A stretch of 64,000 nt of DNA from Bacteriovoracaceae bacterium. GTDB taxonomy: Bacteria; Bdellovibrionota; Bacteriovoracia; Bacteriovoracales; Bacteriovoracaceae. The stretch is from NCBI GenBank assembly GCA_965206965.1, contig OZ242254.1, forward strand, positions 1,619,466-1,683,465, written 5' to 3'. Numbering within the stretch: position 1 is the stretch's first letter; each line of letters begins with the position of its first letter. The notes beneath the pieces were generated by a model, which was not told the DNA's origin, ran no database searches, and saw nothing but the letters and a program-made list of their open reading frames with translations. The position numbers and the translations under genes are program-made. Shown here one piece after another: positions 42,049 through 48,819 of this stretch.

Positions 42049-44960
42049 TGAAGGCAAGGTTGTTTTTATTTTCATCGATATGGATGGTCTTCTCTTTTGG
42101 TGCAACTGATTTTGCCGATACTCTTTTTACAAAGCAATGGGCATTGAAGAATACTGGGCAAGGGATTCTCTATGCCGAAGATGAGCTCTCTCGAAACCTT
42201 GTAGAGGGAATTCCTGGTGTGGACTTAGACTGGGTTTCTCTTGGTCCCTATTCTATTCCAGTTGACCGTGAAGTCATCGTTGCTGTTATCGATTCTGGTC
42301 TGGATATTTATCATCCCGATCTCAAAGGGAGAATTTGGCTTGATGAAAAGCGTTGCCCGAATGGTTCAGACTCTGTGGAATCGCAGGGATTGCCTTGTCA
42401 TGGGATGAATTTGTTGGAGAGCAATGGGAATATTGCCGATGATACTGGTCACGGCACTCACGTCGCTGGGATTATAGCTGCTAACGCCAATAGTATTGGA
42501 ATTGTTGGAGCTGCCGATTCTCGCGTGAAAGTTATGCCTGTCAAAGTTTTAAGTCAGGAAACGAGAAGCTTTGTTTATAAGGGTCGTCTTATTACAGATA
42601 TCATCGCAGACGGAATTCATTATGCTATCGCCAATGGTGCTGATGTTATTAATATGTCGCTGGGCTGGCCTAAAGTCGTTGAGACTCCCAAAGTGAAAAA
42701 AGCGCTGCAAATGGCTGTTCAAAAAGAAATACCGATTATTGTTGCTGCTGGAAATAATAATAAAAATATTCCTGTTTTTCCCTGCTCTAATAAAGGTGTG
42801 ATTTGTGTTGGTTCTATTGGCAATACTGGAGAGATATCAGAGTTTTCAAATTTTGGAGGGAAGATTGATTTGCTCGCACCTGGTGAATTTATTGTTTCGA
42901 CTTATCCAAGTGTTGATATTGAGTCACGTATTTTGAGAATGAAAGGCTATGAAGCGAAAAAAGGTACCTCTCAGGCTGCACCTTTTGTGGCGGCTATTGC
43001 TGCTAATATGAAGTTGATGAATCCCGATATAAAACTTGGTGAGCTCAAGGCGAAGCTATTGGCTTCTCCTTATGGAGAGAGAAAAGGTTTAAAGCAAAAA
43101 GTGAAAAGAAGTAAGTTTGGGATAGTCAGTATGCGGAGGGCTCTTCAAAAGACCCCTTCTGTTTTTATAACTCCTGATTTTAAAAATCTTTTAGATATAA
43201 AGTTTAATCGCAATACAGGTTCTTTTTCTTTTGAGCTTCCTATCGAGTCCCTTATCGGAGTAGCTGAAAATGTAGAAGTAGCGCTGGAGTTTAGTGGAAG
43301 CCAAGTGTTGCTAGAAAAAGGTTTATTTCAATTGGATAGAATAGAGGAAGGGGAGAGTAAAAGAATTTTTATTAGAGGAAAAGTTGTAAATTTATTTGCT
43401 GATAATAATGTGGATCTTTTTGTCTCTATTAAAACTGGTGATTTTCAACAAAGAACTTCAACAGCACTAATGTTTGCGCGAGATTTGAAGAGAGAAGAAA
43501 ATATAAAGAAATGGAAATTTACTGATCTGACGGCTCATGAAGTCACTTTCTTTAAAGGAATTCGTAAATTATCCAAACTTAAAACGATAAGTGATATTTT
43601 TCATCAAAAAAAGAACCCTGAGTTTTTTGTTGTGCTTAAGAAAAGGCAGACAGATCGCTATACGGTCGTAACTATTGTCGAAATGAAAAACAATTACCAG
43701 ATGGTTAGTAGAGAGCTGAAACTTCCCAAGCTAAATCAAGTATTGGCTATTTTTATAAACGATACAAATAGAGATGGAAAACTTGATTACTTTATTTATG
43801 GTCTGAATGAGAAAAGAACACACTTGACCTTTGATCACTACACAAGAGAACTCCAGCCTTTATTTGGAAAATATAGTCGTTGGGAGTTTAAAATTTCTGA
43901 ATTTGAAGGTCTTCCTTTGAAAAATGGATTTCAAGAGAATTTTTTATGGTTGGCTCAAAAAGTGGAAGGGTTGGGGAATGTGACAATTCCAGCAATTTTT
44001 AAAAAGTATAAATTACCTAGCGAGGACAATACGGAAGATATCTTGGATCGTTATCGAGAGGACCTGAAGGCTCCCCATCTGTATTATTTGAACCCTGTTT
44101 TGAGAAATGGAAAAGTGACCATTTCCTTGAGAGCATTTGATAGTTTTGACTTTCTGGAGAGCTTGAGAAGAAAGTTAAAGATTGGTTTTCGTTCTTCTAT
44201 CCGGATGGAAAAACCTTTTTTTCAAAGCCGTGAAGATCGATCTAGAGGGAGAGTAAAGGCTCTTATTTCCTATGGTCGAGAGTTTAAAAAGAGTTATCTT
44301 CTTATTGATATTACTGAGGTTAGTAAATTTAAGCTTCAACCTGTTCCAATCAATGGGAGATTGCTGGCAGGTAACTCTATTTTTGCCGTAAGGGATATTA
44401 ATGAGGGGGGAAGTTATTTAAATAGCGCTACCTTTTTGGCTCTTTTGAACCGCTCGCAAGCCAGGGCTTATGTTTACAACCCCAATAATAATTCCTATCG
44501 AGCAACAGTATTAAAAACGGACTCTTGGTCAGATCCGATCTTTAATTATATTGCTGGATTCAATGACCCTAAAGGAACTTTTTTTTTAGAGTCTCGCTAT
44601 TTTGTTCACGCTGTGGATAGTGAGGGCAATCGCCAAAAATTGCCGATTAATCGCGATAGTACTTTTCCTGGGGTGAGTTTTTCTGAAACCCTAGAACCTA
44701 TAGTCGTCAATTATCGAGAAAGGTCTCGCCCGGGCATTTTTATTAACTCAACTCTCATTTTTGGCGATCGCCTCTACACTATGGTGAAAACAGATGGTGA
44801 TTTTATTCGCCCTATCGAATTGAGTGTGGCCATTCCCGATAATTGTGCTTATCTCGCCCCCCATTTTTTGGGGGAGAAAGCGAAGGCTCACTATATGATG
44901 CTTTGCAGAGTCGGGAGCTCTGAGGTGGAAATGTGGGCCCTACCTATTGAGGTTAACTAA
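42048..44960 (+). CDS. secreted subtilisin-like serine protease (S8) with a ~600-aa C-terminal extension
   Basis: Catalytic triad motifs VAVIDSGLD, HGTHVAGIIAA and GTSQAAPFVAA, plus oxyanion AAGNN. The GTG at 42048 overlaps the upstream TAG (TAGTG), lies 8 nt after AAGGGAG, and gives signal peptide MKARLFLFSSIWMVFSFGA. The C-terminal part contains a DxNxDGxxD (FG-GAP/VCBS-like) motif, NDTNRDGKLDY. Confidence 0.85.
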   Translation: MKARLFLFSSIWMVFSFGATDFADTLFTKQWALKNTGQGILYAEDELSRNLVEGIPGVDLDWVSLGPYSIPVDREVIVAVIDSGLDIYHPDLKGRIWLDEKRCPNGSDSVESQGLPCHGMNLLESNGNIADDTGHGTHVAGIIAANANSIGIVGAADSRVKVMPVKVLSQETRSFVYKGRLITDIIADGIHYAIANGADVINMSLGWPKVVETPKVKKALQMAVQKEIPIIVAAGNNNKNIPVFPCSNKGVICVGSIGNTGEISEFSNFGGKIDLLAPGEFIVSTYPSVDIESRILRMKGYEAKKGTSQAAPFVAAIAANMKLMNPDIKLGELKAKLLASPYGERKGLKQKVKRSKFGIVSMRRALQKTPSVFITPDFKNLLDIKFNRNTGSFSFELPIESLIGVAENVEVALEFSGSQVLLEKGLFQLDRIEEGESKRIFIRGKVVNLFADNNVDLFVSIKTGDFQQRTSTALMFARDLKREENIKKWKFTDLTAHEVTFFKGIRKLSKLKTISDIFHQKKNPEFFVVLKKRQTDRYTVVTIVEMKNNYQMVSRELKLPKLNQVLAIFINDTNRDGKLDYFIYGLNEKRTHLTFDHYTRELQPLFGKYSRWEFKISEFEGLPLKNGFQENFLWLAQKVEGLGNVTIPAIFKKYKLPSEDNTEDILDRYREDLKAPHLYYLNPVLRNGKVTISLRAFDSFDFLESLRRKLKIGFRSSIRMEKPFFQSREDRSRGRVKALISYGREFKKSYLLIDITEVSKFKLQPVPINGRLLAGNSIFAVRDINEGGSYLNSATFLALLNRSQARAYVYNPNNNSYRATVLKTDSWSDPIFNYIAGFNDPKGTFFLESRYFVHAVDSEGNRQKLPINRDSTFPGVSFSETLEPIVVNYRERSRPGIFINSTLIFGDRLYTMVKTDGDFIRPIELSVAIPDNCAYLAPHFLGEKAKAHYMMLCRVGSSEVEMWALPIEVN

Positions 44961-45101
44961 GCGCCTTGTTCTAAGTTACTAATTTTTAGAAAATAGGTCC
45001 TCTTTCTTTCCCAGGCAAATGGTGCTATGTTTCTGCCTTAATCGCAATCTCGCTCCGCACGGTTAACTGGTGTGGGTGCCGAATAGACCAGGAGGTTCGC
45101 A

Positions 45102-45725
45102 GTGATCTATGAATTGTCCCTTGTGGCAAAAGCTGATCTTAATGAAAAAGATCTAGCTTCTTTTAAAAAACTCGTCCACGAAACAGTCAAAAGTTTTGCC
45201 GGTGAAATTCTCGTTGAGGATGACTGGGGTCGGTTGACATTGGCTCAGCCTACGAAGAAAGGTTTGGAGAGTGGGCATTTTTTGTATTTTCTTTTTTCGG
45301 CAAATAATCAATGTAATGTCGAGCTGATTCGTCGTTTTCGAATTAACGAGAATCACCTTCGCCACATGATTGTTGTCGCAGGGGATGAGTCTCAACGTGA
45401 AGCTATTGTCAAAGCTTATAAGACACCCTTCTCCAAGACTTATCACGGAAGTGTAACAGATGTTGAAGGTAAGGGTAGTGAGGACAATAATCCTCGTAAG
45501 TTTGCTCGGCGCAAAACTTGCTATTTTCGCGCCAATGATATTCGCGCTGATTGGAAGGATCCAGCCACTTACTCTTGGTTGGTTAACGAGTTTGGTAAAA
45601 TCTCTCCGGCTCGGATTTCAGGGGTTTCAACAAAATATCAGCGCTTTGCTACAACGGCGGTTAAAAGAGCTCGTCAAATTGGACTTATCAGCCATGTAAG
45701 CAATCAGGTAGCCTATAAAAGATAA
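45102..45725 (+). CDS. rpsF/rpsR: fused ribosomal proteins S6 (N-terminal) and S18 (C-terminal) in one 207-aa ORF
   Basis: The N-terminus MIYELSLVAKADLNE...EDWGRLTLAQP...HFLYFLF matches S6. The C-terminus RRKTCYFRANDIRADWKDPATYSWLVNEFGKISPARISGVSTKYQRFATTAVKRARQIGLISHV matches S18 (compare E. coli RRKFCRFTAEGVQEIDYKD...[34 protein letters not shown]). There is no stop between them. GTG start 6 nt after AGGAGG. Confidence 0.85.
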   Translation: MIYELSLVAKADLNEKDLASFKKLVHETVKSFAGEILVEDDWGRLTLAQPTKKGLESGHFLYFLFSANNQCNVELIRRFRINENHLRHMIVVAGDESQREAIVKAYKTPFSKTYHGSVTDVEGKGSEDNNPRKFARRKTCYFRANDIRADWKDPATYSWLVNEFGKISPARISGVSTKYQRFATTAVKRARQIGLISHVSNQVAYKR

Positions 45726-45748
45726 AATTTTGATGGGAAGTTAGCTAA

Positions 45749-46774
45749 ATGACAAAAGGTATGGTCGAAAAACCAAAACTTGAAGAAGATAAGGAGCAAG
45801 TGAAGGTTAACGCTTCTCGACGCTTTGGTATAGATCAAAGTAAAGGGCGTCTTTTTTTTCTTATTCTTCTTTCTTTGGCTCTGACAAATTTGGGCTTTGA
45901 TGGCTTTTTGGGCATTGGTCAATACTTTGGTTTACTTTCTTTCTTAGCACCTGTCCCTTTGGCCATGGCCATTCTTATCTATGGGAGGAAGCTTGCTCTG
46001 AGCTTAGCTTTTGGATTGGTTGCATTGTTGGCTTTGGGGGCTTGGTTTGTTCCTCAAGTTGGGGTTGTCGCTGGAGCTTACTTTTTTACTGCCTTTTATG
46101 CTTTTCTTGTAACGGTTGTTATCCAGAATGATGTGAGCCCTATTAAGGGTGTTCTCTACATTGGAACAGTTCTTGTTATAATTTTGTGGATTATGATAGG
46201 AGGGTATAATCTGGCTGTTGAAGGTGGTATTCATCAATATATTACCCAAATGGTGGATGCTAGTTTAAAGCAGGTTCCCAATCAGAAAATTGATCCTAAG
46301 GTTTTAGTAGACTATATCCAAACAATGGGACCTATCTACATAACAATCGCCCCTTTTCTTGCCTTGTGGGCATGCTTCTTTTTAGTTATGAGGAATTCTA
46401 TTTTTTGGAACCATAGAGTTAGTTACTCCTATTCTGGTAAAGATATGGTTTCCTTTAGGGCGCCAGATTACCTTATTTATCCTTTGGCTGCAGGGTTGGC
46501 TTTAAGCTTGACAGGTGGCTATTATGAGATCGATAAAATGGCTTTGATAGGCAATATCTTACTTAGTTTTGTTGGGGTTTTCTACTTTTTTCAAGGGTTT
46601 GGTGTTTTCTTAGATTCTTTGAATCACTTTAAAATTGCAGGCTTCATGAGAAGTTTTCTAGTTGTCTTTGTTATTATCCTCGCGCAAGTTTGGCTTGCTG
46701 TTCTGGGGGTTCTTGATACTTGGTTTGATCTTAGAAAATTTTTTCGAAAAAAATTAGATGAAGGAGATATATAA
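45749..46774 (+). CDS. polytopic membrane protein, DUF2232/YybS-like by topology and position
   Basis: About eight TM helices. It sits directly upstream of rplI-dnaB, as yybS does in Bacillus. The family call is tentative. Its stop overlaps the rplI ATG. Confidence 0.55.
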   Translation: MTKGMVEKPKLEEDKEQVKVNASRRFGIDQSKGRLFFLILLSLALTNLGFDGFLGIGQYFGLLSFLAPVPLAMAILIYGRKLALSLAFGLVALLALGAWFVPQVGVVAGAYFFTAFYAFLVTVVIQNDVSPIKGVLYIGTVLVIILWIMIGGYNLAVEGGIHQYITQMVDASLKQVPNQKIDPKVLVDYIQTMGPIYITIAPFLALWACFFLVMRNSIFWNHRVSYSYSGKDMVSFRAPDYLIYPLAAGLALSLTGGYYEIDKMALIGNILLSFVGVFYFFQGFGVFLDSLNHFKIAGFMRSFLVVFVIILAQVWLAVLGVLDTWFDLRKFFRKKLDEGDI

Positions 46775-47391
46775 TGAAAGTCATTCTTACTGAGAAAGTG
46801 TCTACTCTGGGTAGTGTTGGTGAAATTGTCAATGTGAAGCCTGGCTACGCTAGAAATTTTCTCATTCCTAACAGTAAGGCCATTGTTGCTGATCAAAGTA
46901 ATCAAGCTCAGCTTAACCATATGGATAAAATGCTAGCTAAAAAAGTAACTGAGGAGAAAACCTCTGCTGAATCTATTAAAGCAAAACTGGATGGACTAAG
47001 CCTTGAGTTGATTAAAAAGGTGGGAGCTTCAGGAAAGCTTTTTGGAACAGTAACAACCAATGACCTCTCTAAAGAGTTGGCGGCTAAAGATATTGTCATT
47101 GAACGTCGCCTTCTTGTGGTTGATAAACCGATCAAAGCTTTGGGTACTTACAGTATCAAAGCTAAATTATTTAAAGACGTAGAGGCTAATTTCACTGTTA
47201 AAGTTGAAATAGATCCAGCTCAAGCAGAAGAGCTTAAAAAGAAGGCTCAACAAGCTGCTAAGAAAAAGAAAGAGATGGAAGCCAAGGCCAAAGAAGAAGA
47301 AGGAAAAGAGAAAACTGAAGAAGCTCAACCACAAGAGCTAACTGAAGAACAGAAACTAGCGAAGGAAGCCGCAGAACTTCTGAAAAGCTAA
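46774..47391 (+). CDS. rplI: 50S ribosomal protein L9 with a ~55-aa Lys/Glu-rich C-terminal tail
   Basis: MKVILTEKVSTLGSVGEIVNVKPGYARNFLIP is the canonical L9 N-terminus. The protein is 205 aa against ~149 aa typical; the tail reads AEELKKKAQQAAKKKKEMEAKAKEEEGKEK. Confidence 0.9.
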   Translation: MKVILTEKVSTLGSVGEIVNVKPGYARNFLIPNSKAIVADQSNQAQLNHMDKMLAKKVTEEKTSAESIKAKLDGLSLELIKKVGASGKLFGTVTTNDLSKELAAKDIVIERRLLVVDKPIKALGTYSIKAKLFKDVEANFTVKVEIDPAQAEELKKKAQQAAKKKKEMEAKAKEEEGKEKTEEAQPQELTEEQKLAKEAAELLKS

Positions 47392-47439: not shown

Positions 47440-48819
47440 GTGACTACCCCACAGCAATCGAATCCATTTTCAAATCCGAAAAAGCAAATTCGAGAGCTTC
47501 CTCACGACCTCTTAGCTGAAAAATCTTTGTTAGGATGTCTCATTATTGACGGTCAATCTTTTGCTGAAATTTCAGATTTAAAGATGAAGAGTGAGGATTT
47601 TTTTCATCCACAATATGGAGCCATCTTTGAAGCTATTTCTGACTTAGCTTTAGGCAATCATCCTGTCGATTATGTCACTGTCGCCTCTAAGTTAAATGAG
47701 TTTGGAAAGCTAGAGGAAATTGGAGGTTCCTCCACCATAAGTGAATTGGTTGATGAACAGGCTTCTTCTGCCAATATCTATGCCTACGCTAAAACGGTTA
47801 AGGATAAATCTTCATTACGAGAGATTCTTCGCACATCGATGAGAGTGACGGAGATGGGGATGGGTTTCCAGGGCTCAACAGAGGATTTTATTCAAGAAGT
47901 TGAGGGTGCTTTTTTTAAACTCACTAATGAAGCGAAATCAGGCAAGATGGTCAAGCTCAACTCATGTTTGAAAGAAAATCTTAAAGAATTAGAAGATACA
48001 GAGCGGAGTGCTGGTGAGATACAAGGGCTTTCAACAGGGTATCCCAAACTTGATGAGCTTCTTTTGGGTATGCAGCCGGGTCAATTAGTTGTTTTGGCGG
48101 CACGTCCCGCTATGGGTAAAACAAGTTTAGCTCTCAATATTGCCACTAATGCCTGTGCTCATCATGCTCAACCTGTGGCTATTTTTTCTCTTGAGATGCT
48201 TTCTCAAGAATTGAGTATGCGTTTGCTTTCGAGCAAATCAAAGGTTGATTCTAGACGCCTTCGAACAAAAAATTTTTTAGACACTGATCTTCGTTCGATT
48301 GGTCGAGCTGTGCAAGAGCTTTCCAATTTTCCTATTTTTATTAATGACTCAGGAGATAGTACGCTATTAGATATTCAATCTCAGTGCCGAAAAATTCAAA
48401 CTGAATATGGTTTGGGCTTAATTGTTGTCGACTATCTTCAGTTGATGAACCCTCATAATAAAGTTATTTCCCGCGAGCAACAAATTTCAGAAATTTCTCG
48501 AGGTCTTAAAATTTTGGCTAAAGAGCTTGAATGCCCAGTCATTGCTCTCTCTCAGCTCAATCGAGGGGTTGAAACGAGACCTGAAAAAAGACCTAACACT
48601 GCCGATTTAAGAGAGTCTGGCGCTATCGAGCAGGATGCCGATGTGGTGATGTTTGTCTATCGAGACGAGTACTATGATCCCAATACAAAAGAGCCTGGGG
48701 TAGCCGAGATTATTGTAGCCAAAAATCGAAGTGGTGAGACGGGAACGGCGAAACTTGCTTGGGTGGGAGCCTATACTACTTTTGAAAACTTGGCCTTCGG
48801 AGATGCACCTCGACAATAG
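47440..48819 (+). CDS. dnaB: replicative DNA helicase DnaB
   Basis: Motifs LPHDLLAEKSLLGCLI, Walker A ARPAMGKTSLALN, VVDYLQLM, LSQLNRGVE and RESGAIEQDADVV. Confidence 0.9.
   Translation: MTTPQQSNPFSNPKKQIRELPHDLLAEKSLLGCLIIDGQSFAEISDLKMKSEDFFHPQYGAIFEAISDLALGNHPVDYVTVASKLNEFGKLEEIGGSSTISELVDEQASSANIYAYAKTVKDKSSLREILRTSMRVTEMGMGFQGSTEDFIQEVEGAFFKLTNEAKSGKMVKLNSCLKENLKELEDTERSAGEIQGLSTGYPKLDELLLGMQPGQLVVLAARPAMGKTSLALNIATNACAHHAQPVAIFSLEMLSQELSMRLLSSKSKVDSRRLRTKNFLDTDLRSIGRAVQELSNFPIFINDSGDSTLLDIQSQCRKIQTEYGLGLIVVDYLQLMNPHNKVISREQQISEISRGLKILAKELECPVIALSQLNRGVETRPEKRPNTADLRESGAIEQDADVVMFVYRDEYYDPNTKEPGVAEIIVAKNRSGETGTAKLAWVGAYTTFENLAFGDAPRQ

Follow-up and report, generated by a model that had tools for sequence, protein, structure and literature searches.

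A fused rpsF-rpsR gene encodes ribosomal proteins bS6 and bS18 as one chain in Bacteriovoracaceae and their relatives

Ribosomal proteins S6 and S18 form a textbook pair whose members must pair up before they bind ribosomal RNA, and they are canonically encoded by separate genes, as in the E. coli string rpsF-priB-rpsR-rplI. Reading the open frames of a 64-kb stretch of DNA from a Bacteriovoracaceae bacterium (the window, by which we mean the whole stretch analyzed) revealed one open frame, at 45102..45725 on the forward strand, that begins with GTG and encodes both proteins in a single polypeptide of 207 amino acids. This frame is a true in-frame rpsF-rpsR fusion, very probably the organism's regular rpsF-rpsR locus merged into one coding sequence, and comparison with related genomes shows the fusion to be nearly clade-wide in the Bacteriovoracaceae/Halobacteriovoraceae-type lineage of Bdellovibrionota. 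The features on which the analysis draws are the following, each given with its supporting evidence:

45048..45104, + strand: 5' leader element (covariance model R1, alignments)
45102..45725, stop codon included, + strand: rpsF-rpsR fusion gene, encoding a bS6-bS18 single chain (Pfam, NCBIfam, homologues)
45102..45383, + strand: bS6 core domain, residues 1-94, with a beta-alpha-beta-beta-alpha-beta fold (PF01250, TIGR00166, AlphaFold2, Foldseek)
45384..45461, + strand: conserved S6 C-terminal extension, residues 95-120, comprising a helix (96-105) and a motif (conservation, pLDDT)
45462..45497, + strand: variable acidic joint, residues 121-132, VEGKGSEDNNPR (lowest conservation, indels, pLDDT)
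45498..45722, + strand: bS18 domain, residues 133-207, KFARRKTCYF...AVKRARQ... (PF01084, TIGR00165)
45749..46774, + strand: DUF2232 membrane protein gene (Pfam; position constant in relatives)
46774..47391, + strand: rplI, encoding L9, whose start overlaps the stop of the DUF2232 gene (Pfam)
47440..48819, + strand: dnaB, encoding the replicative helicase, last gene of the conserved string (Pfam domains of orthologues)

The open frame, its two domains and its neighbors

An earlier note on this DNA had described an uninterrupted 207-codon frame carrying S6 and S18, a description that holds in full, as both domains are complete and score above curated cut-offs. Searches against Pfam place Ribosomal_S6 (PF01250) at residues 3-91 (E 3.7e-17, 62.7 bits against a cut-off of 27) and Ribosomal_S18 (PF01084) at residues 147-196 (E 1.6e-15, 57.4 bits against a cut-off of 21); the NCBIfam equivalog models agree, with TIGR00166 (S6) matching residues 1-92 at 48.8 bits (cut-off 42.9) and TIGR00165 (S18) matching residues 134-200 at 58.3 bits (cut-off 38.75). 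The product has a computed mass of 23.7 kDa and a computed pI of 9.7. Its GTG start codon is preceded, at a spacing of 6 bases, by AGGAGG (45090-45095), and the homologous start codon in relatives is ATG, with an identical N-terminus (MIYE...).

Residue conservation was assessed throughout on an alignment of 141 distinct fusions (A3). Within the AVKRAR segment of the S18 part, K188 and R191 are invariant in all 141, and R189 is nearly so. Our own alignment of this motif with its E. coli counterpart (AIKRAR against AVKRAR) equates K188 and R191 with K60 and R63, the residues with which E. coli S18 reads C719 and C720 of 16S rRNA (PMC4647458).

AlphaFold2 run with 141 sequences yielded a compact model of the chain (mean pLDDT 83.6, pTM 0.80); when given 21 sequences only, it left the S18 half unfolded (pLDDT ~40) and the S6 half folded. 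The model places strands at residues 2-10, 35-46, 57-66 and 85-94 and helices at 15-31 and 69-81, which together make up the split beta-alpha-beta fold of S6. Confidence is highest in the S6 core (pLDDT 91-95), runs at ~82-92 through the S6 extension, and falls below 50 at residues 123-129, to which disorder is limited. A pTM of 0.80 for a two-domain chain suggests that the modeled domains may sit in a defined mutual arrangement. Foldseek matched solved S6 chains with target TM-scores of 0.8-0.94 (best 8buu_f), these matches covering at most 45% of the query, and a profile search of all PDB sequences aligned solved bS18 chains with profile positions 134-204 (E ~5e-17). The chains found by that search match S6 or S18 only, with none spanning both parts, and no solved ribosome with a fused chain was found among PDB sequences.

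Upstream, the fusion gene is flanked by a large subtilase gene; downstream, a gap of 23 nt, in which no terminator-like site was found, separates it from the DUF2232 gene, which occupies the same position in every related locus that reaches far enough downstream. The order fusion-DUF2232-rplI-dnaB is invariant in all related loci long enough to show it. The DUF2232-rplI-dnaB string resembles the Bacillus yybS-gdpP-rplI-dnaC region minus gdpP. Neither ssb nor priB is present around the fusion gene, in keeping with what had been stated from the sequence beforehand. The L9 protein of the window (46774-47391) is 205 residues long and ends in a Lys/Glu-rich C-terminal tail of ~55 residues.

Spread of the fusion and the making of the joint

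Single-genome fusions of adjacent short genes are often artefacts, and frameshifted or truncated database versions of this one exist (P0121, P0136, P0141, P0149), both of which would fit a sequencing or assembly indel that joined two separate genes. The earlier note had proposed a check for such an indel at 45380-45500 and a comparison across the clade. Two scans of species-representative genomes, together with two loci obtained by exact protein look-up, brought 164 related loci in all, a few of the 164 being the same contig fetched twice. These loci answer the check for an indel: an uninterrupted S6-S18 frame of 197-215 amino acids is kept in 156 of the 164 loci, with length variation that is always in frame. 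Every one of the 156 fused loci has the conserved CCAGGAGG, and each starts with ATG or GTG at one and the same codon. Many different studies and sequencing platforms contributed them; among the sources are the isolates Halobacteriovorax sp. CON-3 and Bacteriovorax sp. DB6_IX and BSW11_IV, the chromosome of Peredibacter sp. HCB2-198, which is complete, and long-read chromosomes. Among 5.8 billion proteins searched, 401 fused homologues, all with both domains, came to light down to ~50% identity. As a control, the same test was applied to 80 Geobacter and Bacteroidota loci in which rpsF and rpsR are adjacent, and it classed all 80 as split. With parts that are distinct proteins in other genomes and an open frame free of internal stops, the gene is a fusion of the Rosetta-stone type. 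Logan contigs from two public runs of one sample also agree exactly with the window over a 1-kb stretch, an agreement that is weak by itself, as this may be the source sample. Comparative data across the related loci thus rule out a sequencing or assembly artefact; the notion of two indel-joined genes is refuted by them, and we give it next to no chance.

In the four database versions just named, the frame is lost after the S6 part and the remainder is nonsense; they are probably assembly frameshift errors and possibly pseudogenes. Separately, a typical Bacteriovorax-type fusion locus occurs in MAGs labelled Sulfitobacter, Epsilonproteobacteria and Flavobacteriaceae (L025, L049 and L085/L111), an indication that these bins are mislabelled or contaminated.

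Relatives with separate rpsF and rpsR number 8 fetched loci on 7 distinct contigs (L086-L091, from MAGs labelled Oligoflexia, together with L094 and L155), plus one JGI contig listed without DNA. These split loci resemble the fused ones in their location and gene order (rpsF, rpsR, DUF2232, rplI, dnaB), in the VKxYKxP motif at the C-terminus of S6 and in the S18 signature DWKDPxxYxWLVNEFGKISP. Unlike in the fusion, S6 (113-115 residues) stops 5-6 residues past VKxYKxP, and a gap of 15-150 nt precedes a separate S18, which bears a longer acidic, Gly-rich N-terminal extension ahead of ...DKDRKMF(A/S)(K/R)K.... Since the separate S6 and S18 of these relatives carry the same extensions, the fusion joined two terminal extensions that already existed. 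The rpsR genes of L094 and L155 encode Asp in place of the otherwise invariant Cys of the N-terminal S18 motif RRKxCxF (KKRSDWF).

The same division is visible within the fused chains. Across the 141 fusions, conservation is good in the S6 core and in the S18 domain, and the region between them falls into two parts. The first, the S6 extension, contains the motif (I/L)VKxYKxP, present in the window as IVKAYKTPFSKTYHGSVTD, with K104 conserved in 98% of fusions, Y106 in 94% and P109 in 100%; the window has the form TPFSKxYxGS, which is typical of the subgroup it belongs to. The second, residues ~121-132, is acidic, Gly-rich, variable in both sequence and length, and the least conserved part of the protein. 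The distance from G94 to R136 ranges from 33 to 48 residues, and the indels lie mostly in the joint, clustering after residue 124, every one of them in frame. The fusion is under purifying selection through the joint. The ~35 residues that had been read beforehand as a linker do connect the two domains, but they are not a neutral tether, as residues 95-120 are conserved and confidently modeled. Only residues ~121-132 form a variable, acidic, disordered joint, which matches the N-terminal extension of the separate S18, and the conserved VKxYKxP motif, judged by its presence in the separate S6 of relatives, belongs to S6.

A tree of L9 and DnaB requires at least two changes of state, with one split pair nested among fused lineages, although this is a quick tree whose deep branches are weak and whose outgroup sits on a very long branch. 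The AU test does not reject one fusion event that leaves every split lineage outside it (p = 0.43), and the tree therefore does not fix the direction of change, that is, one old fusion as against later splits.

The split relatives also bear on whether the fusion might be an extra, specialised copy, with canonical separate rpsF and rpsR genes located elsewhere in the genome. We consider this very unlikely. The fusion stands at the canonical locus with rplI and dnaB, behind an rpsF-type leader (described below), and it is at this same locus that sister genomes have their separate rpsF and rpsR. Both domains, including the RNA-reading residues, are strongly conserved, which makes a spare copy less likely still. 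A word-based search for the S18 domain, a weak method, detected no stand-alone S18 on the window's 2.9-Mb contig; it gave three short proteins, none of them on that contig and one of them a mis-called fragment of a fusion (P0137). The corresponding word-based search for stand-alone S6 relatives brought up nothing but shorter fusions and fragments that were truncated or frameshifted. Our reading of the gene remains the regular locus of the organism, its rpsF and rpsR merged into one frame.

A conserved leader and the fate of the fused product

The S6:S18 complex of E. coli and B. subtilis binds a leader ahead of rpsF (PMC3895269, PMC4647458), and S18 residues K60 and R63 read a conserved CC within it (PMC4647458). 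Inspection of the region 5' of the fusion gene revealed a candidate counterpart. A hairpin at ~45050-45082, of the form CUCGCUC-stem-loop-stem-GGGCY, is followed by a spacer and by a conserved CC (45088-45089) that abuts AGGAGG (45090-45095), after which comes the GTG. Nearly all related loci present the same succession, in which CUCGCUC is followed by a variable stem with its loop and return strand, then by GGGCY and, after a short A/U-rich spacer, by YCCAGGAGG.

A covariance model (R1) built from 90 related leader sequences has a single match in the 64-kb window, at 45048-45104 (25.3 bits, E 6.6e-6), and at most one match per related locus, always just 5' of the gene. R1 also matches the split loci L094 and L155 and, weakly, an unrelated fusion locus (L167); it has no match at the Oligoflexia-labelled split loci or at the Gemmatimonadota locus L165. 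In the leader alignment, whose fitting to R1 favors structure, 93.9% of cells in the stem are paired, and double-sided changes occur in 181 cells, as compared with 58 in shuffles, and in 6 of the 8 stem pairs. The covariation score of 0.604 compares with 0.181 in shuffles and with at most 0.20 when the partners are slid, and it was reached in 0 of 500 shuffles. At least 90% of the sequences have the CC just before AGGAGG; its placement in a bulge rests on a 3-bp, non-varying CUC/GAG pairing. Support for the leader structure is comparative only: folded by itself, the leader of the window does no better than shuffles of it (z = 0.34), and Rfam gave no match in 44800-45900 at E up to 1.

Set beside the published description of the rpsF leader (Fu et al., 2014, PMC3895269; Babina et al., 2015, PMC4647458), the element shares these features with it: a location directly 5' of rpsF, a covarying stem-loop followed by a conserved CC beside the Shine-Dalgarno sequence, and a short 5' CUC that could pair with the GAG of the Shine-Dalgarno sequence, as in the published H1 stem. 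It differs in its presumed ligand, which here would be a single chain rather than a two-chain complex. We regard 45048-45104 as a candidate lineage-specific form of the S6:S18 leader. The earlier note had anticipated consequences of the fusion for autoregulation of the operon. Given that the covarying hairpin has been kept upstream and that K188 and R191 are invariant, the circuit has probably been retained rather than lost, with the single chain probably repressing its own translation through the leader as the S6:S18 complex does in E. coli.

Taken with the domain and joint analyses, these observations suggest how the product may work. Single-chain bS6-bS18 most likely adopts the fold of the S6:S18 pair, which in other bacteria comes together from two chains, and most likely attaches as a unit to the central domain of 16S rRNA once S15 has primed it. 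The C-terminal extension of S6 (the helix and VKxYKxP) was joined to the acidic N-terminal extension of S18, leaving ~12 variable residues as the only part to act as a flexible tether. Such an arrangement would fix the stoichiometry at 1:1 and make dimer formation intramolecular. We infer that the chain stays uncleaved in the ribosome and that it is what binds the leader; that the mature chain is fused is supported indirectly, in that the indels are all in frame, no internal start is conserved and the two-domain model is confident.

Two other fates of the product can be weighed on the same data. In one, a single chain is translated and then cut in the disordered joint, a mini-polyprotein that would deliver separate mature S6 and S18 in equal amounts. 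Residues ~121-132, being variable, acidic, Gly-rich and disordered, are of the kind that proteases reach, and some lineages live with separate genes broken at exactly that place. The joint, however, has no conserved sequence able to direct specific cleavage, and K104, Y106 and P109, which might otherwise suggest a processing signal, occur in the separate S6 of relatives as well, and hence are not one. We also know of no such processing for bacterial ribosomal proteins, and altogether judge cleavage unlikely.

In the other, S18 is additionally made on its own from an internal start. On two contigs, those of L072 and L074, the NCBI annotation has just an 81-residue S18 that starts at an internal Met (P0137), and a Met stands at position 133 in ~46% of fusions. 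The joint of the window, however, has no in-frame ATG, GTG or TTG; a start codon with a Shine-Dalgarno-like 4-mer upstream is found in just 10 of the 141 relatives; and in the separate S18 of relatives the same Met is internal, and therefore no old start codon. Both contigs (L072, MEQB01000001.1; L074, MEPW01000052.1) have an uninterrupted 206-residue S6-S18 frame despite the P0137 annotation, and the 81-residue S18 is therefore a gene-calling choice. Separate production of S18 accordingly seems scarcely credible to us.

The uncleaved single chain that we favor can be taken a step further, to a combined proposal in which the tethered chain, with its structured, lineage-specific S6 extension, is never cleaved in the ribosome and alters the 30S platform, the same chain represses its own leader, and the repeated origin of the fusion reflects selection for coupling. 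As a whole this proposal is doubtful. Were it true, the altered platform could act on the order or kinetics of assembly, or on the chamber close to the mRNA exit and to the anti-Shine-Dalgarno sequence, and the fusion would have arisen repeatedly and independently, in unrelated bacteria, through selection for coupling the members of an obligate ribosomal heterodimer covalently.

Independent fusions and known counterparts

The earlier note had called a covalent fusion of the two proteins unusual, and that judgment needs tempering: the fusion is not unique to this lineage, and Gemmatimonadota are among the other bacteria with an S6-S18 fusion of independent origin. These more distant examples came from a profile search of 1.84 billion representative proteins. 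One, from Gemmatimonadota/Longimicrobiales (L165, L166), has 207 residues and is found on 19 contigs; another (L167) has 205 residues and lies on a 2.9-Mb contig between pth and rplI-dnaB. Further fusions are of gamma- or alpha-proteobacterial or Bacteroidota-type sequence, and some of these may be single-genome artefacts. The fusions of L165, L166 and L167 resemble that of the window in domain order, in similar total length and in their placement before rplI; they differ in sequence, which shows no relation outside the two domains (E 1e-12 to 1e-24 against the profile). Their different linkers and neighboring genes indicate separate events, and S6-S18 fusion has thus arisen independently in Gemmatimonadota and in at least one other lineage. 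In L165/L166, a 311-residue protein without a Pfam match stands where DUF2232 stands in the window, followed by L9 and RsfS.

The literature that we searched yielded no mention of a natural S6-S18 fusion, and we met no discussion of one on consulting the main survey of prokaryotic ribosomal proteins (Yutin et al., 2012). Databases do register the architecture, as the automatic JGI names "ribosomal protein S18/ribosomal protein S6" attest. Annotation pipelines variously name the fusion "S6", "S18" or "hypothetical", or reduce it to an 81-residue fragment, and such mixed annotation can distort marker-gene counts for these genomes.

What the fusion offers is a ready-made, natural single-chain S6-S18, kept in a large bacterial lineage and reinvented elsewhere. 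It is a variant of a well-known pair that alters no major concept, and it provides a natural system for examining how covalent coupling bears on assembly of the 30S central domain, whether a single chain can replace the two-chain repressor of the rpsF leader, and how the chain is routed across the platform.

A close point of reference is the canonical bS6:bS18 heterodimer, represented by the T. thermophilus S15-S6-S18-rRNA complex (PDB 1G1X). In E. coli, RimK glutamylates the C-terminus of S6 and RimI acetylates the N-terminus of S18; neither modification would be able to occur at the fused ends. The fused chain resembles the canonical heterodimer in its complete and conserved domains, in the S6 fold, in the cytosine-contacting residues of S18 and in the presence of rplI in the gene order, and differs from it in that the two partners of the window are one polypeptide.
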